Sequence record: NC_079184.1
From: Escherichia phage vB_EcoM_DE15
Direction: 5' to 3' (one strand)
Length of the DNA stretch: 53,998 nt
Part shown: piece after piece, positions 652-52,898 of the stretch
How the letters are laid out: each line of letters starts with the position of its first letter
Numbering within the stretch: the stretch's first letter is position 1
Translations under genes and position numbers: made by a program
The notes under the pieces: model-generated
Told to the model about the DNA's origin: nothing
The model's input: the letters and a program-made list of their open reading frames with translations, nothing else
Database searches by the model: none

Positions 652-2592
652 ATGACTACTATCACCACTCAAACTATCAAATCCGTTGTTCCTGCTATCA
701 CTGCTCTGGTATACCGTGCCAAAGAGAAACAGAACTATATGCAGCCTCAGACTTGTGCTATTGCTGCCTTAGCCATCTTCAAGATGATGACGTCTTTCAC
801 TCGTGATGACGTTGTCCCTGCCATCGCGATGGTTGAACTGGCTTCTGCTTCTATTGCTGATGCCAACCGTTATAACAACGATTTGAAAGCAATGCACTAT
901 GTTGACCCAGCTATCAACCTCATTGGTCTGGCTAAGCACTTTGGCTTCATCACCATGAACGAAGACAAGTCATTCCAACAGACTGACACATGGGTTGAAC
1001 TGGTTACAACCAAAGACACCGCAGTGCCATTCACTGAGCGTGTTACATCTGAATCTCGTCGCAAGCCTTTCGTTAAAGGTGGCAAAGTTAAGCCATCCAA
1101 AACTCTGAAAGCTGCAATCGAATTCCTGCAAGATACTGAGTACCATGTGGAGACTGAGATGGTTCGCATCATCCAGTCCATGCTTGAGCAACGTACTTAT
1201 GGTGGCTTGCAGATGCCAGAAGCAATCCAGACTGAACTTCATGTTTGGAACAATGCTGTAGCAATGATGAATCAGGACACACTGTATTCTGACTACTTTG
1301 CTGACAACCGTGGTCGCCTGTATCATGTAGCATGTGCTGGTCCTAACCCACAATCTTCTGACTTTGCTCGTTGCTTGTATTCTCACAATGTTGAGAACAT
1401 CGTTAAGAAGTTTAACGAAGATGGTTCTACTACCATTGCATACAATATGTTCATGGCAGAACTGGAAGACATTTCCGGTGGTGAATGGTGCACTGCCAAG
1501 CGTTTGACTTATGTTGCTCAGAATCCAGCTGGTTCACTTGCTCGCATGATGAACATGCCTAAAGCTGAACGTCCTTCCAAGCCATTCACTTATGTTCGTC
1601 TGGCTCTGGATTGGTTCAAGTTTGAGACTACAGGTGAATGCGATTCTCGTGTAGGCTTTGGCTTAGATGCTAAATGTTCTGGTACTCAATATCTGGCATT
1701 CATTGCTGGCAATATGGAAATGGCTCGTGCAACAGGTCTGGTTGATTCTGAGACTAAAGCATCTGACCCATACCAGTTGAGTCTTCGTGAACTGTTGAAG
1801 CTGTTGGACAAGTCTTCAATGAAACCATCTCCTGAAATCATGGATGAATTCTTGAATCCGAAAGCTGGTCGTAAGTTTATCAAAACTCCGTACATGGCTA
1901 TTCAATATGGTGGTGGTAAAGCTGCACTAACTGGTTCATCTGACTTCATCAGCTACATGACGGAAGCTCTCCAGATTCCTATGGAGAAAGCTGAGGCATT
2001 TGCTGAACTGTGTGTAGAAGCAATCCATAACGCATTGGGTGCTAAGATTAACATGTTCATTGAGAAAGCTGCTGAGGCTGCATACAACCGTTGTGTTGAA
2101 CTCAACAAAGAGTACATCACATATCGTCACACTGATGGTCAGGTTGTAATGAAGCCTTGCTTCCCATCTCGTGAAATCTGTGAGGCATTCAGCATTCGTG
2201 TTGACAGCCAAACTCGTGTTATCTTTGGTCAGATTCAGGAGAATAAGCCTTGGACCATTCGTGAATCCAACCCAACTAAAGAAGAATTCAAGCGTACTTT
2301 CGTTGTTAACTACATTCAAGGTATTGACGCATTGGTTGCTCGTACTGTTGCAGTTAAAGCTAAAGAAGCTGGTCTTCGTGGTTTCACTTCAATCCACGAT
2401 TGTTTCCGTTGCTGTTTGGCAGATGCTCCACGTATGATGGAAGTTATTCGTGCAGCATATGTTGAAATCTTTGTAACCAACAATCAATTCGAGAATCTGT
2501 CTAAGCAACTTGGTGGCATTCAGATGTATCATGAGAACATCGTAACTGAAGAACTCCTGATGTCTGAACACGCTTACTACTTCTGTCAATAA
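652..2592 (+). CDS. Single-subunit (T7-type) DNA-dependent RNA polymerase, compact 646-aa form
   Basis: Motif A GLDAKCSGTQY (T7 DGSCSGIQH), motif B RKFIKTPYMAIQYGG (T7 RxxxKxxxxxxYG), motif C IHDCF (T7 HDSFG); only ~130 aa precede the palm region. Confidence 0.8.
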   Translation: MTTITTQTIKSVVPAITALVYRAKEKQNYMQPQTCAIAALAIFKMMTSFTRDDVVPAIAMVELASASIADANRYNNDLKAMHYVDPAINLIGLAKHFGFITMNEDKSFQQTDTWVELVTTKDTAVPFTERVTSESRRKPFVKGGKVKPSKTLKAAIEFLQDTEYHVETEMVRIIQSMLEQRTYGGLQMPEAIQTELHVWNNAVAMMNQDTLYSDYFADNRGRLYHVACAGPNPQSSDFARCLYSHNVENIVKKFNEDGSTTIAYNMFMAELEDISGGEWCTAKRLTYVAQNPAGSLARMMNMPKAERPSKPFTYVRLALDWFKFETTGECDSRVGFGLDAKCSGTQYLAFIAGNMEMARATGLVDSETKASDPYQLSLRELLKLLDKSSMKPSPEIMDEFLNPKAGRKFIKTPYMAIQYGGGKAALTGSSDFISYMTEALQIPMEKAEAFAELCVEAIHNALGAKINMFIEKAAEAAYNRCVELNKEYITYRHTDGQVVMKPCFPSREICEAFSIRVDSQTRVIFGQIQENKPWTIRESNPTKEEFKRTFVVNYIQGIDALVARTVAVKAKEAGLRGFTSIHDCFRCCLADAPRMMEVIRAAYVEIFVTNNQFENLSKQLGGIQMYHENIVTEELLMSEHAYYFCQ

Positions 2593-2600
2593 GAGAAACA

Positions 2601-2630
2601 GGGCTGGCAATAGCTGGCCCTATTCTTGTT
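2601..2630 (+). terminator. Hairpin (8-bp stem incl. 2 GU, AATA loop) followed by T-rich run after the RNAP gene
   Basis: GGGCTGGC-AATA-GCTGGCCC then TATTCTTGTT. Confidence 0.4.
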
Positions 2631-2693
2631 CATCAACAACTAAATCCCAATATTCAAGCAATATTGCTGCATGTAATATTGCTCCGATATTCG

Positions 2694-2714
2694 ACATTAG
2701 TTGGATATGAAGTA
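2694..2714 (+). promoter_or_regulatory. Phage promoter-like motif ACATTAGTTGGATATGAAG
   Basis: Member of recurring 20-nt motif family. Confidence 0.4.
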
Positions 2715-3670
2715 AAAGAATACGGAGAAATATTCCGCATGTCATGTTGAATCATTCTAGAAACATTCAGCATGTCAGCTTTGAGTTACAGCGTTGTAAT
2801 GATGTGGCAATCATTGAACTCCCTGGGAAGGCCACCTATAGTTCCAGCAACCATGACTTAGAGTAGGAATATCTATCCGAAACTTGGACTTCATTGTAGT
2901 TTGGTGTGCTTCATCGTGAGAAAGGTTGTGATAACTTTCGTAAGCAGGTGTTGAACTAACAACAGAACATCGTGTTAGCCATCTTGATTAAGTTACAAGA
3001 AAGTCAACAAATCAGCATGTCTATTAGTAACAATCTTGTTCCTTCTCCTATTATCAAGGCCCACCCACAAGCCGGGAGATAACTTTGACAAGACTGGAAC
3101 TTTTGGACATGCTTCTTTCTTTCTACAAGAATTCGAAAGAAGAGAAGAGTCGGAGCAAAGCCGCGAAACTAATCCCGTAGCCCGCCCCCGATTTTGAGCA
3201 ACAAATATTGTGACAATTGCGTCGCAGTATGGCATGTAAATATTGCTACAAATTGGCATGTTGGAATGTGGCAGAATTGTTAGAGGACTAATCACCTCGA
3301 AGATACAATCGTCTACCAATCTGGCATGTTAATTTTGTAACAGTATTTGTGCCAATTTCGCATGTAATAGTTGTATCAGTATTGACCCAATATTCTTGCA
3401 ACCCGCATGAATACTGGCTTCCAGCCAAGCGAAGGCTTTATCATCGCATGTAATATTGTGACAATATTGGGATAAAACCCTTTATTTAAATCATTTAGTT
3501 TATTAATTAAATGGTCGGTTTTCTGTACATAGGTATTCAACTGTTTGTGCCAAATACAAACAAGTTGGCTGCTTCTACAGAACTCCAGTGCTACAAATGT
3601 TCGTGCCAATCTGCTGCAATTTATCTCATTTGGCGGGGTAATATTGTATTAGGTTGGTACGTCATTATTT

Positions 3671-3692
3671 CGATTAGTTGCATGTGAATAAG
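3671..3692 (+). promoter_or_regulatory. Phage promoter-like motif variant GATTAGTTGCATGTGAATAAG
   Basis: Member of recurring motif family, one core substitution. Confidence 0.3.
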
Positions 3693-3964
3693 ACCAAATC
3701 TCTGTAAATTCTGTGACAGATTTTAGAGAGATTATGTCTCCAAGCTAATCATTGTAGTTCTTCGGCACTTAATGTGTCACATATATAGCCTGTGAAAAAC
3801 GTGTGGTTTATTGCTGGATTGCAACGCGCCCACCAGACTAGGGAGTCCGTGATGGCGGCACACAGGAATACTATATAACTCCCTACAACTTTAAGGTGGA
3901 TTGAGGTAAGACAAGACCTCCACAATCGTTCTGTAGGGAGTTTTCTTTAACTTGGGAGAATAAA

Positions 3965-4213
3965 ATGGATACTGTGACTAAAGCTGCTTACTTTAAAGAC
4001 TTGTCAGATGGTCAAATATTTTCTATTCGCTCTGTAAAGTGGATTAAAGTAAATGAATCAGACAAGTACAATGCTGTAAAGTTCTTTGATTCAAGCAAGG
4101 CATGTACTTTTAGTGACAATATTGTTGTAAATATTGAAGTCGAATTAGAGCCAGATGATTCAAATGATGAAATCATTCTGCGTAAAACTGTTGGATACAC
4201 TAAAGGATTCTGA
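3965..4213 (+). CDS. Hypothetical early protein (82 aa)
   Basis: ORF with GGGAG RBS upstream of ATG. Confidence 0.5.
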   Translation: MDTVTKAAYFKDLSDGQIFSIRSVKWIKVNESDKYNAVKFFDSSKACTFSDNIVVNIEVELEPDDSNDEIILRKTVGYTKGF

Positions 4214-4214
4214 A

Positions 4215-4445
4215 ATGGATTATGCACTGTATCACTATATAAGCAGGACTGGGCTTGTTCGTCACGCTTTGGTCAACATTAAAACCAAAGACATACTGTT
4301 GGCTGGCTTGTCAATTTACGAAAACAATTTAGTATGGAAACGTGCTGTACATCCTGGACATGTTTGGGATGTAATTCAGTCTGACAAATACCACAAAATT
4401 GTTGCAATGGCTAACCGACCAGAGCACATCAAGCCGAGGAAATAA
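4215..4445 (+). CDS. Hypothetical early protein (76 aa; ORF track gives 4155 start)
   Basis: ATG at 4215 directly after upstream stop; tight gene packing. Confidence 0.4.
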   Translation: MDYALYHYISRTGLVRHALVNIKTKDILLAGLSIYENNLVWKRAVHPGHVWDVIQSDKYHKIVAMANRPEHIKPRK

Positions 4446-4447
4446 TC

Positions 4448-4636
4448 ATGGACTTCATCGTCTACTTTAAGTTAAATGGTGTAGAGCAAAGTTTGTACTT
4501 CAATTCTTTACTTCGTTTGCAACAGTGGGCGGAGAAGTTTGTTGGTTACGACTTTGATTACATCAATGCATGTACAACTGACGAACATGAGGAAATCGTG
4601 TTCAGTTCTTTAAATCAAATTCTGGAGGCCAAGTGA
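4448..4636 (+). CDS. Hypothetical early protein (62 aa)
   Basis: ORF, ATG start, packed with neighbours. Confidence 0.45.
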   Translation: MDFIVYFKLNGVEQSLYFNSLLRLQQWAEKFVGYDFDYINACTTDEHEEIVFSSLNQILEAK

Positions 4637-39162: not shown

Positions 39163-39338
39163 TATCCCTGTTCCCCGACATAAAATATTTTCTGCATCGT
39201 CCTATAATCGAAGATAGTTCTCTCTGCAAGTTACGTGAATTGCAAGATGGAACCTATTCGATTATGGACTTATTGCTATTCCACGACATTCTCGATTTGC
39301 GTAAGAAACTCGAACCAGTAGATGAAGACAATGGCTAA
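39060..39338 (+). CDS. -1 frameshift extension of tail assembly chaperone (GT-like product)
   Basis: -1 frame opens exactly at the slippery heptamer (stop TGA 39057-39059) and runs 92 codons to 39338. Confidence 0.5.
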   Translation, partial: FFQARARNQRTETIGGGGSIQAGRAEEFESGDSLVSLFPDIKYFLHRPIIEDSSLCKLRELQDGTYSIMDLLLFHDILDLRKKLEPVDEDNG

Positions 39339-42300
39339 TCAAAAAGATTTAATGAAGTTGAGCGTTAATGAGTTAATTGCATTAGGCTCTCAAAGCGGTC
39401 TGACTTTCCATGCTGGTATGAAGAAGTCGCACATGGTTCAACAACTTAGTGCGAGCGCTGCTTCGGGATGGCTGGATACAAATGCAGAATTAATGGGTGG
39501 GTCGTTCGAAGATGACAGTTTGATTACTGAATCTTTGGGTGACTCTTCCATGATTTCAGACGCTGCCCACATTGCACAAGTGCTTTCAAGTGCTGGCTAC
39601 ACAGAAGCATTTCATGCAGCAATGAATGGCCCATCACACCATGTAGAAGCTGTTCACGCATACATGGAAAGGCTTGGCGTTAGCACAGATGATGTGTGGA
39701 TGCACATGCCAAAGCCAAATCCGAACCTACCGCAAGGTAGCTTCAACATGCTTAATGCCTATATGCGAGATACTTTGCAAGGGCATCAAGATATTATGCC
39801 GGAAATCCCAGGCCATTATGCTGGGGATATTATGGCTGAATACTCCACCAACCGTGGAAACATTGCTGACTCCTACAACTACATGGCCCACATGTATGTT
39901 GACCGTGAGCAATATAGCAATCATGAACAATACGCAAGAGACATTAGTCGAGTTGCCAAACGTCTGGAACGAGAGTTACCCTCAGCCTTTAAGGAAGTTG
40001 GGTATACATCCGCATCTAATGTAGGAAATAAATCGGCCCCACATATTTCTTACATGGATGCACTCCCTCAGATTGGTTCTCCTTCGATTGTTTCTGGCAT
40101 TGCACATCCTCGTGCACCTCTTAACGCATCTGGACTTCCTCTTGGTTCTTATGGTTCTGGCATAAATCCAGAATACTCCCTCACTGCCTCGCTAACTGGT
40201 GGCACTGGTTGGAGTGAACCAAGCAAGGCTTTATATTCCTCTATTAGCGAAGCTGTTAAATCTGCTGCCAAAGTTTATTCTGGTTCCAAAGGGATGATGA
40301 ATACTCGTCACGAAGTATCTGACCGTGACATGATTATGGACAGTGCAACTCGCTACACAGATTTGGAAGAAGCCAGAAGCGGATACGAAAACCTTCGTTC
40401 TGAACTTGCAGATGAACCAGCTTATTCTGCATCAAGTGTTCGAGCTATTCTCGAAAACACTTACGATAGAATGGATGCCGAACCTGTTCGCATTCCAAAG
40501 ATGAAGGGAGCTTCACAGCGAGTCGATAAAGATTCACTGTCAACATCTACAGATTTTACAGCACAACTTGGAGAGGCCACCAATTGGAACTCTGCAAGAA
40601 TGCGTCGTGAGGAACTTGCGATTGCAAATATGGATAGTGCTGGATTCCGTGATGTATCAGACTATGGTACAGGACGTTCCGAGTCCCCCGTCCGATTCCA
40701 TGACTTAGAACAGGGCAGCCAAGAGTGGCTGGACTTCCGTAAAAATTATGACATAACTGGCTCAACTGTTGGAACTTTCTTAGGAAACAACCCATACACC
40801 CGACCTTGGGCTGGTATGATTGATAAGATTGGCTTATCTCGTAGTAAAGAGCACAGCGATTTCACCAAAAAGATGTTCGCTGATGGTCACAGGACGGAAG
40901 AAGAAGCACGCGCTCGTGTTGGTAAGGAATTTGGATTCGATATCAAACAAATTGGCGCTATAACAAATGACAACTATCCCGCCTTCATGTATTCTCCTGA
41001 TGGTCTTATTGGGGATGATGCCATTTGGGAGCACAAGAATCCGCAAAGGGCTGGTAAGTTTGCTGACCTTCTTAAAGGCGACCATCCAGACTACATGGAC
41101 CAAATTCAATTTGGTATGCACGTTTCTGGCCGTTCTCGTGCTTTGTTCTCACAAACCATCAACGACGAAACACGTTCGCAGTGGATTGAGAAGGACGAAG
41201 GATGGTACGAAAGAAACCGAAATCGCCTTGATTCTGTGCTTGGCCGTCTTGATGCTGGGCGAGAGTTTGTTAGAAACAATGCTGGATTAGAACGAGAAGA
41301 GCTGATTGCTGGTGCAAGAAGTGCAATGACTGGTGATGGAATCTGGAAAGATATTCGTCAAAGGTCTACTCGTGGCTATTCTGCTGCTGCTGGTACTCCA
41401 GAAGACCCGTTTATTGGTTCACGTTCTTCGTACAATCCAGAAGCATCCTACTCTGACTACAAGCCAAACTTTGTAATGCACGAGCAAAACTTTCCGGCAA
41501 CTACTGGAAATGGTGACACCGGAAATGACTCGATGGCATTGTCTGTTAAGAAAGGTATTCTTGCTGCTCAGGAAGAAAACAGGCAGAAAGGTATTGGTGC
41601 AGATGCAGACTTTGATGGCAAAGCCGATTCAATGGGCTGGAACCGTGAAAGATTTGATGCTGCCAATGGCGGTGGATATTCTGGCGGTGGTGGTGGTCGT
41701 GGCGGCAACTTCACAAGTGGTGGCAACTACTATGATGACTACGGTCGCATGGGTGGTTCGTTAGCTGCTGGCATTGCTGGTGGCAGTATTGGTTCAGCAA
41801 CCAACGGAGTTATGCAAGCATTGATGGCAACTCCTGCTGGACGTATGGCTGCTGTAGGCATTGGTGCTATTCAGATTGGCAATGAAGCTGCTGAATACAT
41901 GAATGACTTTATCGGCAACTCGCTTGATGCTGGTGTGATAAATCCTAATGAATATTCTTCCATGTCGCAAGGCTTGGAGATGTTAGGACTCAACTCACAA
42001 CAAGCGGCACGTCTGAATCAAACCACACATAGTGCCTATAACACCATGCTTAACGGCGACCCCAGCGCCGCTGTGAACATCGTTCGCGGCAGTAGGGGAT
42101 TGCTCACCATAGGTGATATTCGTGCGACAGGCGGCGACCCTGTGGCCCTGGCTCGCATCATGCAGGAAAGGGGCAAGGAGCGTGGCTGGAGTCAGGCCCG
42201 TATCGCAGGTGCTGCCGAAATGGCTGGCCTACAGGGTATGGCGCGAGCATACGACCGCACGGAATACAGCCATGAGCAAGCTGGCTCGGTGGTAGAAGCG

Positions 42301-43047
42301 GGTAGAAACTCCGACTTTGCCGAAGGTATGGCCCAATCGGAAATGTTGCAGGGAAGCCGCGCACGGATGCTGCCGAGCTACAACGTGCCACAAAGTGTCC
42401 TATCTAATGGCGCTTCTGTATTTGAGGCTGGCAGTGATGCACTTGACAGTGTACGCACTGGATTCAACAGGACACGAGAGTTTGCTGGAAGTGTTTACGA
42501 CTTTATTGCTCAGGAAGAATCTGGCGGTCGTGAATACAACAAAGATGGTTCTCGTGTAACAAGTCCAACTGGCGCTCGTGGGATAATGCAGATTCTCCCT
42601 TCGACTGCCCGTGACCCAGGATTTGGAATCAGGCCGTCTGATGGAACTCCAGAAGATGATGCACGAGTTGGTCGTGAATACTATGACGCAATGTACAAGC
42701 GTTATGGCGACCACGAGAAAGCAATGGCTGCTTACACCGATGGTCCTGGCACTGTTGACAAAGCTGTTGATAAGAATGGGTTGGATTGGCTTACTGCTGT
42801 TCCTGCACAGGCACAGAATCGCGTCAAAGCATTCCGTGAATGGTCCAAGTCTTCTCAATCTTTGGAAGAAGGTGCTACAGGGTTTACTCGTAATGGAATG
42901 TCATACGGTCAAACCCAAACTGTTGTTAATGTTAAGATTGATGCTAAGGTCAACAACCAGACTGCTTCTGCTACAGTTGCAATTCCTGGTGGTCAGACTG
43001 TGACTCAACAAATGAACATGAACAACGGTGCGCAACAAAGACGTTAA
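39322..43047 (+). CDS. Tape measure protein (1241 aa) with internal YqaJ-like PD-(D/E)xK nuclease domain and C-terminal lytic transglycosylase (SLT) domain
   Basis: QGSQEWLDFRKNYDITGSTVGTFLG and YSPDGLIGDDAIWEHKNP (YqaJ-like); EESGGREY...GARGIMQILPSTA (SLT); Gly-rich hydrophobic stretch. Confidence 0.65.
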   Translation: MKTMANQKDLMKLSVNELIALGSQSGLTFHAGMKKSHMVQQLSASAASGWLDTNAELMGGSFEDDSLITESLGDSSMISDAAHIAQVLSSAGYTEAFHAAMNGPSHHVEAVHAYMERLGVSTDDVWMHMPKPNPNLPQGSFNMLNAYMRDTLQGHQDIMPEIPGHYAGDIMAEYSTNRGNIADSYNYMAHMYVDREQYSNHEQYARDISRVAKRLERELPSAFKEVGYTSASNVGNKSAPHISYMDALPQIGSPSIVSGIAHPRAPLNASGLPLGSYGSGINPEYSLTASLTGGTGWSEPSKALYSSISEAVKSAAKVYSGSKGMMNTRHEVSDRDMIMDSATRYTDLEEARSGYENLRSELADEPAYSASSVRAILENTYDRMDAEPVRIPKMKGASQRVDKDSLSTSTDFTAQLGEATNWNSARMRREELAIANMDSAGFRDVSDYGTGRSESPVRFHDLEQGSQEWLDFRKNYDITGSTVGTFLGNNPYTRPWAGMIDKIGLSRSKEHSDFTKKMFADGHRTEEEARARVGKEFGFDIKQIGAITNDNYPAFMYSPDGLIGDDAIWEHKNPQRAGKFADLLKGDHPDYMDQIQFGMHVSGRSRALFSQTINDETRSQWIEKDEGWYERNRNRLDSVLGRLDAGREFVRNNAGLEREELIAGARSAMTGDGIWKDIRQRSTRGYSAAAGTPEDPFIGSRSSYNPEASYSDYKPNFVMHEQNFPATTGNGDTGNDSMALSVKKGILAAQEENRQKGIGADADFDGKADSMGWNRERFDAANGGGYSGGGGGRGGNFTSGGNYYDDYGRMGGSLAAGIAGGSIGSATNGVMQALMATPAGRMAAVGIGAIQIGNEAAEYMNDFIGNSLDAGVINPNEYSSMSQGLEMLGLNSQQAARLNQTTHSAYNTMLNGDPSAAVNIVRGSRGLLTIGDIRATGGDPVALARIMQERGKERGWSQARIAGAAEMAGLQGMARAYDRTEYSHEQAGSVVEAGRNSDFAEGMAQSEMLQGSRARMLPSYNVPQSVLSNGASVFEAGSDALDSVRTGFNRTREFAGSVYDFIAQEESGGREYNKDGSRVTSPTGARGIMQILPSTARDPGFGIRPSDGTPEDDARVGREYYDAMYKRYGDHEKAMAAYTDGPGTVDKAVDKNGLDWLTAVPAQAQNRVKAFREWSKSSQSLEEGATGFTRNGMSYGQTQTVVNVKIDAKVNNQTASATVAIPGGQTVTQQMNMNNGAQQRR

Positions 43048-46262: not shown

Positions 46263-46633
46263 TGGCTGGAAATTTAGCTCTTGATTCAAACCACGACATT
46301 ATTATCGGTCGTGGAACAACTCGTATTTCAGGTGCTGCTCAAGTCGCTCAATTGGTTAAGTGCAGATTGCTGACAATCTTCGGAGAATGGAAGCTCGACA
46401 ATTCGTTGGGCTTGCCTTGGTTCGAAGCAATCTTCACAAAGCAAGTGCGTCCCTCGGATATTGAGGCGGCAATAGCCAACATTATTCGTGGAACTGCTGG
46501 TGTTCAGCAACTTATATCCATAGATATTGATGCAGACTACCGAGCAAGAAGCCTTGGAATCTCCTTTACTGCATTGTCTGATTATGGCAACATCACGGAA
46601 TTCTTAACATGGCAACAATCAAATACGGCGTAA
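46262..46633 (+). CDS. Baseplate wedge protein (GPW/gp25-like)
   Basis: ~120 aa, position before J-like gene. Confidence 0.45.
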   Translation: MAGNLALDSNHDIIIGRGTTRISGAAQVAQLVKCRLLTIFGEWKLDNSLGLPWFEAIFTKQVRPSDIEAAIANIIRGTAGVQQLISIDIDADYRARSLGISFTALSDYGNITEFLTWQQSNTA

Positions 46634-47766
46634 CAGAGAACGGTTTTGTTCGCAAGCCTGTGGCCGACGTTGTATCAAGTCTTAATAACAAATTCATTGC
46701 TGCATTTGGTTCCAACTTTGATATAAGTCCGGAATCTCCTGACGGGCAATATATTGGAATTATGGCCGATGAAATCGCCTCGTGCTGGGAACAGGCTGAA
46801 CAAGTATTTAACGCATTCCGTCCAGGTGCTGTATCAGGCATTGGACTAGACAACGTTTGCGAATTAACAAATACTGTTCGATATGTTGACAAGCCTTCTC
46901 AAGCAACTGTCTTGTGCGATGGTGATATGGGAACTACTGTTCCTGCTGGTTCTATCGTAACGGATGGCACCATGCGCTTTATTCTCGACACAGATGTAAC
47001 ACTTCCAGGTGACGTAACTGTTATTGCAGAAGAGCCTGGTGAGTATTATATTGCACCGAGAACAATCAACCAAATCGTAACTCCTGTTGCCGGATGGAAT
47101 TCTGTAATTAACGAAACAGTTGGCGAGACTGGTATTAACTATGAATCAGACCCACAACTCCGAGCACGTCGAGAAAAGACTACGGCAGTCAGCAGCACAG
47201 CCACAGTCGAAGCCATCTATGCTTCACTCGCTGACCTCGATATTGATTACATTCGTGTTCGTGATAATGATACCGGCTCTCCTATTGGCAATCAGCCTTC
47301 GGGCACTGTATTTGTTGTAGTTGATGGCGGTACGAGTAATGATATTGCACGTCGAATCTACAATGCCAAAACTGGCGGAGTTCCGACATATGGCGATATC
47401 ACAATTACTGTAGCAGACTCGAAAGGCTACCCACACGATATTCATTTCAGCCGACCAACTTACACCGACATTTATGTCAAAGGTACGTTCCGTCGTCGTG
47501 CAAATGCCAACATAAGTTCGAACGATGCTATTCGTCAGCTTACAGATGCAACCATTGAATATCTCAACTCCCTGCAACCAGGGCAGAGTGTGGTATGGTC
47601 CAACATGTTTGCTCCTATCATGGCTGCAACACAGTATCTTGAGATTGATTCACTGTTTATTGGTATTGCACCAAACCCAACTGGCATAGCAACGATAGAA
47701 TTGGATATCGACAAACGTGCTCGTGGGGTTGCTGCTAACATAACTTACACTGATGTGACGGTATAA
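46609..47766 (+). CDS. Baseplate J-like protein
   Basis: 385 aa, position in P2/Mu-like order. Confidence 0.5.
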   Translation: MATIKYGVTENGFVRKPVADVVSSLNNKFIAAFGSNFDISPESPDGQYIGIMADEIASCWEQAEQVFNAFRPGAVSGIGLDNVCELTNTVRYVDKPSQATVLCDGDMGTTVPAGSIVTDGTMRFILDTDVTLPGDVTVIAEEPGEYYIAPRTINQIVTPVAGWNSVINETVGETGINYESDPQLRARREKTTAVSSTATVEAIYASLADLDIDYIRVRDNDTGSPIGNQPSGTVFVVVDGGTSNDIARRIYNAKTGGVPTYGDITITVADSKGYPHDIHFSRPTYTDIYVKGTFRRRANANISSNDAIRQLTDATIEYLNSLQPGQSVVWSNMFAPIMAATQYLEIDSLFIGIAPNPTGIATIELDIDKRARGVAANITYTDVTV

Positions 47767-47767
47767 T

Positions 47768-48409
47768 ATGGCTGGTAAACATGGCTTAGATATGCTGCTT
47801 TCACAGTATGCACTGTCGCCAAACCTTCGTAAGTATATTTCAATCTTCTTAGAAGAGTTTGCAGAAGTTAAACAGGCCATGACTGACTCAGTTAAGTACA
47901 GATACTTAGCAGATTCGTTCGGAGTCATGGTTGACGACCTTGCGTATATTGTGGGAGCTTCTCGTGTAATACAAGGTGCTGCGGCACTTGGGTATTTTGG
48001 CTTCTACGCCAACCCAGGTGCATTTCCTGCTGGTGATGACAACGACCCAGGTATTGGTGGTATTCTGAAATCAGATTACGACAAAGACTCTGGAGACTTT
48101 GTTCGAACAGATGGTCAGTTAAAGGATGCAATACGTGCCAGAATCATTAAGATAACTGGCAACTGCACCATTGAACAGCTTATCATGTATATCGAGTTGG
48201 TCGTAGGAAGGGAACTGAAACTCCAAATCGTAGAGGGGTTTCAGACAATGGACTACATTATTCATGAAGAGTTGTCTGTGGCCGAGAAAGTTCTCATGGC
48301 CTACATGCTCCCGAACTTTAAGCCTGTTGGAGTTAAGATTACCCTAAGAGATACTAAAGGTAACATCGCTCTGGTTTATGGTTCCAAAGATTATCCTCCG
48401 GAGAAATAA
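47768..48409 (+). CDS. Baseplate gpI-like protein
   Basis: Position. Confidence 0.4.
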   Translation: MAGKHGLDMLLSQYALSPNLRKYISIFLEEFAEVKQAMTDSVKYRYLADSFGVMVDDLAYIVGASRVIQGAAALGYFGFYANPGAFPAGDDNDPGIGGILKSDYDKDSGDFVRTDGQLKDAIRARIIKITGNCTIEQLIMYIELVVGRELKLQIVEGFQTMDYIIHEELSVAEKVLMAYMLPNFKPVGVKITLRDTKGNIALVYGSKDYPPEK

Positions 48410-49554
48410 TGACTCAACGTCTTAAGTTTAATTTTCCCTGGGCGCAAGATGGTGAAGTTAAAGACCCGGACTTGGATACCACTGCGCCAAGTTTTATCGA
48501 AAACAGGTACGCCAATCTGGGCTGGGAAGCTGAAAAGCCTCCCAATGAGTGGCAGAACTTCTTATCCCAAATTAGTGATTTGAAGATTATATCTCTGCTG
48601 TTCAGTGGCATTGCTGAGTTTGATTCAAGTGTGACTTATCAAGTTGGTGCAGTATCTTCTCTCAATGGTGTTGTTCGTGTATACACACCCACAGGTTGGG
48701 AAGAGGTGATGGACCTCAAGAGGGTCGACTACCTTAATGACGTCAGTAACTTGAAGTCCCTCTACGATAATCACTTGGCTGCAACCAATCCACATAAAGA
48801 AACTGTGGATACCATTACAGATAAAACTTATAGCAAAACTGATATAGATGATGCCTTTGGAAGCCCTACAGACCCAAGGACCATCGTGTATCATAAGCTA
48901 CAAACTGGCCGCGTACACCAAGAAACTCCACAACAGCTTGGAACACTTCCAACATCTGGTGGCAAGTTTTCCGGACCTGTGTCACTGTTGGGTGGTATGA
49001 AGTTTGGAACAAACATCACAATTCAAATGAACCCAGGAAATGGGAGAATTGAGATGCGAGCAGGTAATAGGATTCTATCCATTGATGCACTTGGCAATGT
49101 TCTGTGGAGCATAGTTGGTGGTGCAGAATATCCAGTGATGACAGAGCTGAATTACTCAGAATTTCAGATTCGCTGGGGAAACAGGTTTGCACTCCCTACA
49201 CCATATTTGCAAATGGACTTTGCGAGAAGCATTAATGATGGTTCATCTGTTCGTGACTGGACAATCACAACCACAGAAACACCAGTGTTTCACCCTAGCG
49301 GTGGGTTGAAGATAGATGACAACACTGTCACGTTTTCAGGATTTAATATCACTATTCCGACAACCATAGTTGCACTCACCAGAAACTCTGCTGGCGCACT
49401 TGGGAGGGGCAACTCAGATGCTCCATCTGGAGGATATACGAGCCTAAACACCCTGCTTACAAACTTGGGTGTATCAGATGCTGCATACATTGTCAGTATT
49501 ACTTGTTACCCAACACTTACCGCTTATCAGAAATCAATGTTAGTGAGGCCATAA
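48409..49554 (+). CDS. Tail fiber protein (proximal)
   Basis: Position; fiber-like composition. Confidence 0.45.
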   Translation: MTQRLKFNFPWAQDGEVKDPDLDTTAPSFIENRYANLGWEAEKPPNEWQNFLSQISDLKIISLLFSGIAEFDSSVTYQVGAVSSLNGVVRVYTPTGWEEVMDLKRVDYLNDVSNLKSLYDNHLAATNPHKETVDTITDKTYSKTDIDDAFGSPTDPRTIVYHKLQTGRVHQETPQQLGTLPTSGGKFSGPVSLLGGMKFGTNITIQMNPGNGRIEMRAGNRILSIDALGNVLWSIVGGAEYPVMTELNYSEFQIRWGNRFALPTPYLQMDFARSINDGSSVRDWTITTTETPVFHPSGGLKIDDNTVTFSGFNITIPTTIVALTRNSAGALGRGNSDAPSGGYTSLNTLLTNLGVSDAAYIVSITCYPTLTAYQKSMLVRP

Positions 49555-50939
49555 TGGCAATTCGTCCTAAACTGAACCGAGTCTGGACTTCAAACAACTC
49601 TGTCGCAAGACGTGACCCAGGGGATGAAAAATACCTCAAGGGTTGGGTTGCGGAGATTCCGACCTATCAGGTTCTTAACTACCTGCAATACAAGATTGAC
49701 ACCACAATGCTTGCACAAGCAGAGCGTGGAATCTTTGAGTGGGGAAATGATGTAAGTTATGGCGTTGGTAGTTTGGCTTGGGACGAAACAGACAAGACTA
49801 TCTATGTTTGTACTGTCACCAACCCTAACAAAACACTACGCCCAAGTGCAAACTCTGCACAGTGGAGTCCAAGCTCCATCCAAGTTCCTCGTGCAAATTA
49901 TGACTCAATTGTGGCAGCAATCAATGCACACATTGCAGACATAACCTCAAACCCGCACAAAGTAACTGCTGCACAAATTGGTGCATACAACAAGTCCGAA
50001 CTTGATTCGATTGTTGCCAACTATCGTGCAATGGTACAGGCACACGTAACGGACTACAACAACCCGCACCAACTTACTGCAACTCAGGTTGGTGCTGTTC
50101 CTGTAACTGGTGGCGCATATACTGGTGAAGTAACTTTCACAACTGTGTATCTGAATGATTCCAAAACTGCACAGATTGTAAATGACGGTGGATTGTATCT
50201 TCGTAATGGAAGCTACTACCTTGGAGTCAATGGAACCACAGGAAATCCAGAGGCAGGCACTGCTTCAAGTAAGTCGCGTATTGTAACGGAACTAAACTTC
50301 CCAGATGTTAAGGCAGCACAAGAGCCTGGGTATGCTCACCTGGAACCAACATTCCAAATGAACTTTATAAACTCACTTAACATAGTGAGGGGTTCTGGAA
50401 CAGTGTCTTCTACAGAAGGCATGGATATTCGATACGACCAAGCTAATGGTGGTGTGTTCCTGTTTGACCAGGGTGGCATTGGACATTCGATAAGCGGTAG
50501 CGACGAACTTGTAGCAACTGGTGAAAACGTGCCATTTACGATTGCATTTGACTACTACCCAAACAATCCGATAGATTCTACATCTTGGCAGTTTACCATA
50601 GGACTACTTGGGTATAAGGTACTGTTCCGAGTAAACAACAACATGTACTTGGAGATTAGAAACTCTTCTGGCTCCAATGTGCAGAGATGCGCCAACCCCT
50701 ACGTTGTAGCTCCATATACATGGAGCAGGATTGTCGCAACATACGACGGAACTACATATCGTCTATATGTAAATGGCGTACAGATTGCTGAAGAGGCTGG
50801 TGGGTTTGCAACACATAACAACTCTGCCAGTCGCAAATTCATGTTGAACCTTGCAGCAAATGTTCAGAAGGCTGTTAGATTCCGTGGATTTAGGCTCTGG
50901 CCTTACTCGCTTAATGCCAAGCAAATTTCAACTTTATAG
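49554..50939 (+). CDS. Tail fiber protein with NPH-type repeats and C-terminal concanavalin A-like lectin domain
   Basis: NPHKVTAAQIGAY / NPHQLTATQVGAV repeats; C-terminal YRLYVNGV-type jelly-roll pattern; ATG 49554 with GAGG RBS. Confidence 0.5.
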   Translation: MAIRPKLNRVWTSNNSVARRDPGDEKYLKGWVAEIPTYQVLNYLQYKIDTTMLAQAERGIFEWGNDVSYGVGSLAWDETDKTIYVCTVTNPNKTLRPSANSAQWSPSSIQVPRANYDSIVAAINAHIADITSNPHKVTAAQIGAYNKSELDSIVANYRAMVQAHVTDYNNPHQLTATQVGAVPVTGGAYTGEVTFTTVYLNDSKTAQIVNDGGLYLRNGSYYLGVNGTTGNPEAGTASSKSRIVTELNFPDVKAAQEPGYAHLEPTFQMNFINSLNIVRGSGTVSSTEGMDIRYDQANGGVFLFDQGGIGHSISGSDELVATGENVPFTIAFDYYPNNPIDSTSWQFTIGLLGYKVLFRVNNNMYLEIRNSSGSNVQRCANPYVVAPYTWSRIVATYDGTTYRLYVNGVQIAEEAGGFATHNNSASRKFMLNLAANVQKAVRFRGFRLWPYSLNAKQISTL

Positions 50940-50947
50940 GATTCAAA

Positions 50948-51976
50948 ATGGCTAAAGGTTATTCTTTAGATGCGTTGGTTAAGGAGAAGTGGTCGAGATA
51001 TGCCGAATCCTTAACCAGTGGGTTGGACTTTAATGACTTCTACGGTGTGGAAAAGTCCGGCATATACATGGTTGCTGCCAATAATATAGCCACTACACTG
51101 CTAAACATGCCAGAAAAGGTTGCTGGTGTACTCGAGGTAATGCCCTGGACATCAACGGGGCTAAGCATCCAAAGGTACACTACATACAACCTTGCCAGAC
51201 TATATGTTCGCACAAAGGAGTCCCCAAATGTGGACTGGGGTCCGTGGAAGCTTCAGATAGACGCATCAAACATATTTAATACCATATACCCAATTGGTAT
51301 TGTATTGCAGTTTGATAACGCCACCAACCCAAACAATTCATTCCCAGGCACAGTTTGGGAACAAATCCTAGACGGTCGCTCTGCTCGTTCTGCAACTTCT
51401 GCTGAAGCTGGTACAACTGCTGGTCAAATTGGTTCCACTGGTGGCTCTGATACCGCATCTCTTGCTGTGGCAAACATTCCTGGACACACTCACGGAATGC
51501 AAAACCACACGCACAGTATTGCAGCACACACCCACACGATGGCCCACACCCACTCCATCAACCACGACCACGGTGCCGTGACGTCAAGTTCCAGTGGTGC
51601 ACATACACACAGTGTGTCCGGTACTGCCGCAAGCAACGGTGCTCACACGCACACAGCCGGAACTGGTTACACTGGTGCAGGTAACTACATTGGTGCAGGT
51701 ACTGGGACTGGCCTGGGTACGATGACCACTAACTCTGCTGGTGCGCACACACACAGTGTAAGCGGAACTGCTGCGTCTGCTGGTGCACACACCCACTCTG
51801 TAGACTTACCTAACTACACAGGTACAAGTGGTGGCTCCAGTGCTGCCAATACGGGCGGTACGGCGTTAACCACTGGTGGGCCAAGCAACAATGAAACAAC
51901 CTCAACCGGAAGCGGCACAGCCTTCACTGTGACCAACGCCGTTCACTACTATGCCTTCTGGAAACGGGTGGCTTAA
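50948..51976 (+). CDS. Tail fiber / receptor-binding protein with His-x-His repeats
   Basis: GHTHGMQNHTHSIAAHTHTMAHTHS and three GAHTHSVSGTAAS-like units. Confidence 0.55.
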   Translation: MAKGYSLDALVKEKWSRYAESLTSGLDFNDFYGVEKSGIYMVAANNIATTLLNMPEKVAGVLEVMPWTSTGLSIQRYTTYNLARLYVRTKESPNVDWGPWKLQIDASNIFNTIYPIGIVLQFDNATNPNNSFPGTVWEQILDGRSARSATSAEAGTTAGQIGSTGGSDTASLAVANIPGHTHGMQNHTHSIAAHTHTMAHTHSINHDHGAVTSSSSGAHTHSVSGTAASNGAHTHTAGTGYTGAGNYIGAGTGTGLGTMTTNSAGAHTHSVSGTAASAGAHTHSVDLPNYTGTSGGSSAANTGGTALTTGGPSNNETTSTGSGTAFTVTNAVHYYAFWKRVA

Positions 51977-51984
51977 GGAAAACA

Positions 51985-52326
51985 ATGGAACGATTATCCA
52001 TTCAGATGTTTCTGGACCTCATGCACCAATATGGCGTATGGCACGGCTTGCTCGCTGGTCTGACGGCTTTAATCCGTGGGGCATATGAGAGTGAGGGTTT
52101 AAGCAAGGCGTTGCTAGATGCGACGCTGTGCAGCTTAATCGGCCTGTTTGCATTTCAGGTCGCTGGCACATTTGAGACTTTCACGACTAACGTCACTATG
52201 CAGTTAGTTTTGGCTATCGTGATTGGTGTCATCGGTGCTAACCTCATTATCACAACTGTCAGAGAAAGTTTCTCTGGCGCAATCAAACAACTTAATCCTT
52301 TGACGTGGTTCAAGAAGGCACGATGA
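51985..52326 (+). CDS. Holin (putative, 3 TM segments)
   Basis: Three hydrophobic stretches in 113 aa; directly upstream of lysin. Confidence 0.5.
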   Translation: MERLSIQMFLDLMHQYGVWHGLLAGLTALIRGAYESEGLSKALLDATLCSLIGLFAFQVAGTFETFTTNVTMQLVLAIVIGVIGANLIITTVRESFSGAIKQLNPLTWFKKAR

Positions 52327-52343
52327 AATGATAAGGAACTCGG

Positions 52344-52898
52344 ATGCTATCATTCAAAGTTCTTGCACTTCTGACAGCTTTAGTTCACATCAACGCCCCA
52401 GCTTCGGTTGGGGCAGTGAATTCTGCTATTACAGATTTTGCAAGTCATTCCTATTTAAATGGAAGTCTGAAATTATCTTCTTCACAACGCAAAGAGCTAG
52501 AATGCTACACTAAAGTAATCTGGTACGAAGCTCGCGGAGAAGACAAACATGGAAAGATTCTGGTAGCTAATGTCGTCCGTAATAGAACAGAGTTCGGGAA
52601 GCCATTCGCTAACACCGTTTGTAATGTTGTCTATCAACGCAATCAATTTGCATGGACACGAGAAGCAAAGAAGAAGAATGCTCAATGGAAGCATGTAGCA
52701 AAGATTAATTATGCCACAGAACAACAACAAGTTCTGGACACCATTAATGTTGCAATCTCTTTTGTACTATTTAATCAACCCTCTGTCACCAAAGCAACTC
52801 ACTTTTGTACAGCATCGGAGAAGTGCAACTTCAAGAATGTCAAAGGTCTGGGACGTTATGGTGGCCATAAATTCTATGAGTATCTAGGAAATCTGTAA
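52344..52898 (+). CDS. SleB-type cell wall hydrolase with N-terminal signal/SAR-like segment (endolysin candidate)
   Basis: [21 protein letters not shown] matches the SleB/Hydrolase_2 core; N-terminal [25 protein letters not shown]. Confidence 0.65.

Follow-up and report, generated by a model that had tools for sequence, protein, structure and literature searches.

The third fibre gene of phiEcoM-GJ1-like phages, TF3, encodes in Escherichia phage vB_EcoM_DE15 what is very probably a short homotrimeric tail fibre, the C-terminal two-thirds of which is a receptor-binding tip of the T4 gp37 type. Tips of this type are already known from T4-like phages, from the Felixounavirus Bas63, and from cyanophage A-1(L). 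The new elements are the presence of such a tip in the Chaseviridae, the arrangement of its nine histidine sites as seven plus two, and its two independently shuffled variable modules. No description of a gp37-type needle tip in Chaseviridae was found in the searchable literature, and the literature searched contained no mention of vB_EcoM_DE15. For the most part these results confirm that the metal-stapled needle tip of gp37 type is a widely shared and exchangeable module.

vB_EcoM_DE15 is a phiEcoM-GJ1-like myovirus (Chaseviridae, Cleopatravirinae, Carltongylesvirus). The stretch of DNA analysed here, the window, is 53,998 bp long and is the complete genome of this phage. The TF3 ORF lies on the plus strand at 50948-51976, with the stop codon included in these coordinates. 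It starts with ATG, has AGGA ten bases upstream of the start, and encodes 342 aa. Its product matches the annotated "tail fiber protein" of vB_EcoM_DE15 at 100% identity and belongs with the tail-fibre families of PHROGs (phrog_2097, E 2.4e-40), which bears out the original prediction of a tail fibre; the "distal" position that it also assigned to the protein is unproven. By tblastn, the nearest fibre homologues are those of JL1 (81% protein identity), SA91KD (67%), ST32 (60%), and GJ1 (55%). Orthologues with 100% coverage, 54-82% identity, and the same gene order are present in at least 12 Carltongylesvirus genomes. Conservation was assessed across 120 homologous sequences, of which the most distant has 56% identity, and divides the gene into the following parts, where identities are pairwise means.

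50948..51976, plus strand: whole gene, TF3; ORF with 100% match to DE15, PHROG 2097
50978..51262, plus strand: knob, the second hypervariable module, aa 11-105; identity 44%
50948..50977, plus strand: N-terminal peptide MAKGYSLDAL, aa 1-10; invariant in the 120 homologues
51263..51481, plus strand: collar (gp10/gp12/gp37 type), aa 106-178; identity 80%, Pfam Gp10_C
51482..51658, plus strand: ascending needle with seven HxH, aa 179-237; identity 72%, equivalent to T4 gp37 879-931
51659..51733, plus strand: hypervariable tip, aa 238-262; identity 23%, at the position of the T4 gp37 head (934-959)
51734..51922, plus strand: descending needle with two HxH (267, 281), aa 263-325; identity 77%, equivalent to T4 gp37 960-992
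51923..51976, plus strand: C-terminal strand (..HYYAFWKRVA), aa 326-342 and stop; identity 84%

The needle is marked by nine H-x-H motifs, at aa 180, 187, 194, 200, 206, 219, 233, 267, and 281. Eight of these are HTH and one is HDH, and together they take in 18 of the 19 histidines of the protein. None of 20,000 composition-preserving shuffles of the fibre reached nine motifs, the maximum being six. All 120 homologues have exactly nine. The 18 motif histidines are invariant among them, as against 14% of the other needle positions, while the middle residue of the motif and the positions around it vary. The repeated HTH units that had been noticed in the sequence are thus real. Less exact was the "~170-residue stretch" given for them, which describes the wider Gly/Ser/Thr/Ala/His-rich region (about 180 residues, ~aa 145-325) but not the motifs proper, which extend over 104 residues (aa 180-283, nt 51485-51796). 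The count of three GAHTHSVSGTAAS-like units was a fair one. GAHTH opens four units, at aa 217, 231, 265, and 279; those at 217 and 265 are exact copies of GAHTHSVSGTAAS, the one at 279 starts GAHTHSV, and the one at 231 reads GAHTHTAGTGY.

Among all PDB sequences the only significant match of the DE15 fibre is 2XGF, the receptor-binding tip of T4 gp37, which comprises domains D10-D11. It was found by phmmer (E 3.6e-8, aa 148-318), with a profile of 72 sequences (E 8.3e-9), and by pairwise BLASTP with composition adjustment (6e-10), although these sequence E-values may be inflated by the biased composition (Gly/Ser/Thr/Ala/His) of the needle. Alignment with hhalign gave a probability of 97.4% and an E-value of 1.6e-11, with DE15 183-293 equivalent to gp37 879-992 and the HDH at 206-208 aligned to FDY of T4. 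The T4 protein has HxH motifs at 883, 915, and 929 ahead of its head (934-959), and at 966, 980, 989, and 998 after it. The DE15 pairs 219/233 and 267/281 correspond to the T4 pairs 915/929 and 966/980, with a spacing of 14 residues within each pair in both proteins. Between the two pairs, which flank the tip, lies a spacer of 31 residues in DE15 and of 34 in T4, the tip itself accounting for ~25-30 residues. In a seven-way alignment that bridges DE15 and T4, collinearity extends over the whole stretch between the collar motif YPIG...NP and the C-terminal ...R-x-A, and the two HxH that flank the tip are invariant throughout. The same succession of parts can be recognised in both proteins, the collar leading into the HxH needle and a short head, then a putative return strand and a strand at the C-terminus. 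The likeness to the tip of a T4-type long tail fibre, until now a resemblance in the histidine repeats, is therefore both significant and collinear.

In the T4 tip, the collar (D10) comprises residues 811-881 and 1010-1026, and the HxH histidine triads hold seven Fe; neither H929 nor H931 is dispensable, and LPS and OmpC are bound through tip residues 933-949 (PMC6957217). The collar of the DE15 fibre is recognised by Pfam PF21939, Gp10_C (aa 109-231, 33.2 bits against a cutoff of 27). Its motif IYPIG..NPNN aligns with T4 gp10, YPIG..NPN is also present in gp37, and Y114, P115, G117, and P128 are invariant even when compared with T4 gp37. The C-terminal ending W-[KV]-R-x-A / RLA is common to the Felixounavirus fibre and T4 gp37 (WKRVA / WVRTA / RLA). 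This part of the sequence would fit a C-terminal strand that returns into the collar.

Despite the shared tip, the DE15 fibre is not a T4 gp37 orthologue. It is 342 aa long and shaftless, whereas T4 gp37 has 1026 aa. The shaft (D3-D9) that characterises a gp37 orthologue of ~1000 aa is missing, since only the 10-residue peptide and one knob precede the DE15 collar. The knob sits directly ahead of the collar, a layout that T4 gp37 does not have, no gp38 homologue was found in the DE15 window, and the gp35 and gp36 of T4 are absent. The motifs are also differently placed. Seven of the nine in DE15 are on the ascending side and two on the descending, compared with three and four of the seven in T4. 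On its outgoing strand DE15 has five that are close together, at intervals of 6-7 residues, in a stretch where T4 is free of histidine. Conversely, the proximal returning strand has no HxH in DE15, but in T4 carries 989 and 998; a conserved Gly/Ser/Thr-rich segment lacking histidine follows HxH 281, within aa 263-325. Because of this difference in distribution the proximal needle may be built differently from that of T4. Since T4-like gp37 proteins have been reported to carry 7-9 HxH (PMC6563267), nine is not an exceptional number, and the peculiarity of the DE15 type is the distribution of the motifs rather than their count.

We infer that the protein forms a trimer, that it binds metal and which metal this is, that its chain reverses at the head, that it contacts the receptor, and how it is attached. 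In the proposed arrangement the chain would run from a docking peptide through the knob and collar into an outward strand with seven HxH, form a head of ~25 residues, come back as a return strand with two HxH, and end in a C-terminal strand that re-enters the collar. Each HxH would supply, from three chains, six imidazoles to a single axial metal (Fe2+ in T4), so that nine metal sites are predicted on the three-fold axis. The metals would staple a six-stranded needle and set its register and rigidity, and the histidines would be structural, making no contact with the receptor. The seat of specificity would be the hypervariable head and perhaps the knob as well, which is variable too and has a fold common in sugar-binding fibres. 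Head and knob are swapped between related phages by recombination, each without regard to the other. Against this stands the AlphaFold2 (AF2) monomer made from the 72-sequence alignment (mean pLDDT 61), which is unreliable over the collar and needle (36-66) and has pLDDT values of 44-53 for the C-terminal strand and returning chain.

The tip lies between HxH 7 and HxH 8 and has 25 residues in DE15. In the 120 homologues it takes the form of 77 distinct sequences of 28-42 aa, which fall into many dissimilar types, between conserved flanks (72-77%). This is the pattern to be expected of a receptor-binding head, and would follow if the tip corresponded to the head of T4. The DNA of DE15 and JL1 is 90-100% identical up to about codon 120, and falls to 33% in a 45-nt window from codon 241, which indicates mosaic recombination. 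At the protein level these two phages have knobs that are 97% identical and tips that are 17% identical. Variation in tip and knob is essentially uncoupled (Spearman 0.09 for the 120 sequences; Mantel r=0.18 for 12 genomes). Natural swap points are provided by the N-terminal knob and by the cassette of 25 residues that separates HxH 7 from HxH 8, both of which have highly conserved flanks and are already shuffled in nature; they offer a map for host-range engineering of therapeutic phiEcoM-GJ1-like coliphages.

Fibres of related phages present the same parts in other combinations. phiEcoM-GJ1 gp72, ST32 gp76, and the fibres of JL1 and SA91KD agree with DE15 in length, in having nine HxH, and in being encoded by the last tail gene before the holin. 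The Carltongylesvirus orthologues, annotated 'tail fiber protein', differ from DE15 in their tip cassettes and knob variants. Versions with other numbers of knobs and other HxH splits (ascending plus descending) are as follows.

Pel53 fibre: 351 aa, one knob, HxH 7+2
4HA13 (Sabourvirus) fibre: 212 aa, no knob, the peptide being followed directly by the collar, HxH 4+2
Myduc, two paralogues: 437 and 451 aa, two knobs, HxH 2+1 in gp076 (gp077 not counted)
VSe11 (Felixounavirus) fibre: 781 aa, one knob behind a long shaft, HxH 3+3
T4 gp37: 1026 aa, no knob-collar layout, HxH 3+4

The VSe11 fibre ends with a knob, collar, needle, and head like those of DE15, of which aa 16-182 align. The fibres of Felixounavirus have a long shaft at the N-terminus as well as a domain for binding the baseplate; in DE15 the terminal module stands behind a peptide of 10 residues. 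In Bas63, gp27 (LTF) and gp26 (STF) have gp37-like tips of collar, needle, and head, with 7 HxH in one and 6 in the other, and the fibre chain doubles back to form a six-stranded needle (PMC12609058). DE15, with nine HxH, has more than either of these fibres.

The part of the protein ahead of the collar consists of a knob and a short peptide. In the AF2 model the only confident domain is that at aa ~20-100 (pLDDT 85-93), and the fold of this modelled N-terminal domain matches the Knob type of the R-pyocin fibre. Similar knobs are present in the R-type pyocin fibre (PDB 6CL6, 6CU2), Mu gpS, Pa193 gp47, and the phi812 RBP, and the region of the Felixounavirus fibre equivalent to the DE15 knob matches Mu gpS by sequence (E 8.6e-22). 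In the pyocin and Mu fibres the chain terminates in a lectin-like foot and a downstream chaperone is required, whereas the DE15 knob precedes a gp37-type needle. Knobs are common in saccharide-binding fibres, and Knob2 of the pyocin fibres, which varies, may take part in binding (PMC11871291). The N-terminus of TF3, MAKGYSLDAL, is the same start in every homologue, and the motif MA[KR]G[YW]S[LF]..L is kept in all Chaseviridae versions of the fibre. This includes those of Myducvirus and Sabourvirus, although everything else up to the collar differs in them. Because it is so widely kept, we regard the peptide as a conserved docking element, and aa 1-10 would dock on the baseplate or on another fibre.

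TF3 is preceded by two other fibre genes, and lies between baseplate and lysis genes.

46609-47766: baseplate J-like wedge
47768-48409: DUF2612 baseplate protein
48409..49554, plus strand: fibre gene 1, 381 aa; PHROG 8147, last ~120 aa variable, 80% to GJ1
49554..50939, plus strand: fibre gene 2, 461 aa; Pfam Laminin_G_3, 63% to GJ1
51985-52326: holin
52344-52898: SleB-type endolysin, followed by NrdB

Fibres 1 and 2 have an N-terminal module of ~100 aa in common and vary in their C-terminal parts. Fibre 1 has no match among PDB sequences. The N-terminal part of fibre 2 resembles gp92, the short tail fibre of Pakpunavirus P7-1 (PDB 9zd7, E 7.9e-9), and its C-terminal part is a hypervariable LamG/ConA-like domain (mean identity 36%). 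A protein of 1241 aa that is labelled 'tail fiber' in relatives was considered as a fibre part and rejected, as it is the tape measure protein.

How is TF3 placed on the virion? Is it the outer segment of a longer fibre? Or is it a fibre in its own right? It is possible, and we put it forward tentatively, that TF3 belongs, as the distal segment, to a long fibre of T4-like, composite build in which fibres 1 and 2 make up the proximal part and the knee, with the N-terminal peptide as the point of docking. A composite fibre of three proteins, the third of which contacts the receptor, was hypothesised for the orthologues by the authors of the PP101 study, who also cite electron microscopy of Erwinia phage Y2, in which the fibres consist of two parts joined at a globular junction; they did not, however, obtain active protein (PMC6989608). 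Consistent with such a fibre, TF3 has no recognisable baseplate-binding domain, just the invariant 10-residue peptide; fibres 1 and 2 share their N-terminal module; and the half of fibre 2 that matches gp92 is matched to a baseplate-attached protein. Other features argue against it. In 12 genomes the knob does not co-vary with the variable C-terminus of fibre 1 (r=-0.06), nor with that of fibre 2 (r=0.19); a proximal segment would not usually end in a binding domain of its own, as fibre 2 does with its LamG-type domain; and no hinge proteins of the gp35/gp36 type are annotated in a relative. The match between fibre 2 and gp92 has also been weighed as counting against a "distal" TF3, or as being at least neutral to it.

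TF3 could also, and here too we remain short of favouring it outright, be a self-contained short fibre that stands on the baseplate wedge beside two independent fibres. By analogy with A-1(L) its length would be, very roughly, ~20-30 nm. The A-1(L) fibre gp34 (PDB 8KEC) is like that of DE15 a short single-protein fibre, with a 'shoulder' and an HxH-rich gp37-like arm. It has 379 aa and is a receptor-binding protein by experiment (PMC10966104), and, at a length of 274 A, it is anchored straight on the insertion domain of a wedge protein. The profile match of the DE15 fibre to the 8KEC chain is weak, and marginal at E 0.014; the HxH spacing is 9 in A-1(L) compared with 6-7 in DE15, and its host and baseplate are not related to those of DE15. 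In Bas63 and P7-1 each wedge as a rule carries several independent fibres, and the 4HA13 fibre, in which the peptide leads straight to the collar, has just 212 aa. On the other hand, TF3 has nothing equivalent to the N-terminal baseplate-binding domain of the Bas63 fibres or to the knob with which the P7-1 short tail fibre begins, and ten residues are few for a baseplate anchor.

In either placement, TF3 is a probable determinant of host range that shares this role with two other variable fibres. When compared with GJ1, identity is 91-100% for most other tail, baseplate, and lysis proteins examined, 75% for the tape measure protein, and 61% for DE15 TF3; among close relatives, TF3 and fibre 2 diverge more than any other gene of the tail module. 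The divergence of the TF3 ORF is also recorded in the description of ST32 (PMC6266442). From the GJ1 identities it follows that TF3 is one of three diversifying fibre genes. The original prediction had named it the likely receptor-binding protein and host-range determinant. Its divergence and the variability at the position of the T4 head agree with such a function, but the definite article has to be given up.

The equal variability of the two neighbouring genes means that TF3 may not be the main determinant. TF3 would then be a real fibre in which the needle tip acts on a secondary receptor, first contact being made by fibre 2 with its LamG domain, by fibre 1, or by both. LamG/ConA-like domains are typical carbohydrate binders, and that of fibre 2, at 36% mean identity, is as variable as the variable parts of TF3. 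The TF3 tip co-varies with it (Mantel r=0.56, p=0.002, 12 genomes), which suggests that the tip and the fibre 2 LamG part work as a set. A tip directed at a conserved secondary receptor should not be hypervariable, yet the identity of this one is 23%, and we consider a merely secondary role rather unlikely. The Mantel values for the knob, with the DUF2612 baseplate protein as well as with fibres 1 and 2, range from -0.06 to 0.19 in the 12 genomes, showing no co-variation and pointing to no docking partner for it. On the DNA the knob lies between the TF3 tip and the fibre 2 LamG part, yet it co-varies with nothing.

The reading of TF3 as a fibre with a gp37-type tip has a further difficulty in that T4 gp37 needs gp38 and gp57A (PMC6957217), and a gp38-like or Tfa-like gene was not found near TF3. 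The holin gene starts 9 bases past the TF3 stop. A tblastn search of the DE15 window with T4 gp38 found nothing (best E 0.2), remote homologues or host chaperones being possible, and no Tfa-like or fibre-assembly gene is annotated in the relative Mangalitsa. In relatives that infect Yersinia the place of TF3 is taken by another protein, a "tail fiber repeat protein", and these phages have an extra assembly-protein gene, which the E. coli phages lack (PMC8762354). This contrast implies that the HxH-needle version travels without a dedicated chaperone gene. Could TF3 then be a minimal fibre with two determinants that is independent of chaperones? In that case the knob would be a second exchangeable glycan site, and the dense, one-sided ladder of nine histidine sites would let the needle fold and find its register in the absence of gp38 or Tfa. 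We think this improbable. Were it true, TF3 would be a compact scaffold for re-targeting phages, and if the independence from chaperones is real the module would be easier to express than T4 gp37.

That the HxH array is a low-complexity, histidine-rich region with some other role (pH sensing, surface metal scavenging) or none, and not an axial metal ladder, is highly improbable, for although the region is compositionally biased and AF2 gives no confident structure over it, its histidines are fixed in all homologues amid varying neighbours, its spacing and flanks fit a solved structure where Fe is bound by these very motifs (PMC6957217), and the pair of motifs flanking the tip persists as far as T4. 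At the DNA level the copies of the HxH repeat are 78-85% identical to one another, and because they are no closer than this, the repeats are old ones at the protein level. With this divergence between copies, and with the pattern kept in the 120 homologues, a recent tandem duplication or an assembly artefact was ruled out as the source of the repeats.

Two tail-fibre genes lie directly upstream of the gene for the third fibre, a 342-residue protein with a T4 gp37-type tip, and both are encoded on the plus strand:

48409-49554, plus strand, fibre gene 1 (381 aa)
49554-50939, plus strand, fibre gene 2 (461 aa)

The products of these genes, fibre 1 and fibre 2, have an N-terminal module in common (phrog_8147). 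Fibre 1 has no sequence relative in the PDB, and its variation is confined to the last ~120 residues. The N-terminal half of fibre 2 is homologous to gp92, the short tail fibre of Pakpunavirus P7-1 (PDB 9zd7; E 7.9e-9), and its C-terminal ~200 aa make up a LamG/ConA-like domain of hypervariable sequence, with a mean identity of 36% among relatives. For fibre gene 2 the ORF lister places a TTG start at 49503, which is an artefact; the homologues begin with MAIRPKLN, at 49554.

Among 12 Carltongylesvirus genomes, the hypervariable tip cassette of the third fibre (51659-51733) and the LamG part of fibre 2 (50319-50936) co-vary (Mantel r = 0.56, p = 0.002). In the same 12 genomes, the hypervariable knob of the third fibre, which lies between the two on the DNA, shows no co-variation. 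The pattern hints that the two binding modules, the tip cassette and the LamG part, are functionally coupled.

The tip is flanked by two GAHTHSVSGTAAS units (51590-51802): the outgoing strand of the fibre carries the first and the returning strand the second. The two are identical as protein but only about 78% identical as DNA, which suggests that this 14-residue HxH unit was duplicated internally and that the duplication would be ancient. The unit is also recognisable in T4 gp37.

The same fibre, with seven HxH motifs on the outgoing and two on the returning strand, is present in the Chaseviridae phage Pel53 (PP952070.1, 2501-3556). In tblastn it has 51% identity to the DE15 fibre, the alignment being limited to aa 1-186. 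Downstream, Pel53 has the DE15 gene order of a holin-sized ORF, a lysis enzyme and then NrdB. The record is labelled 'Staphylococcus phage Pel53' with Staphylococcus hyicus as host; this host label looks doubtful. Proteus phage Myduc has two paralogues of the fibre in tandem (1931-4599). Each begins with the conserved peptide and has a pair of knob domains and a needle that is short, with a 2+1 HxH count for gp076. The tandem arrangement implies that the two paralogues either have a docking site each or compete for a single one.

Directly after the third fibre gene is the lysis cassette (51985-52898, plus strand), with a lambda S-type holin (Pfam Phage_holin_3_1) and an endolysin of the SleB/Hydrolase_2 type. 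The N-terminus of the endolysin is hydrophobic, and relatives' annotations call it a SAR endolysin.

The records of GJ1, ST32 and JL1 wrongly label one further gene product 'putative tail fiber':

39322-43047, plus strand, tape measure protein (1241 aa)

It comes after the tail chaperone gene; its Mangalitsa counterpart is annotated as tape measure protein, and a transglycosylase is noted in that of GJ1. The protein shares 75% identity with that of GJ1, which makes it unusually divergent beside the products of neighbouring genes.
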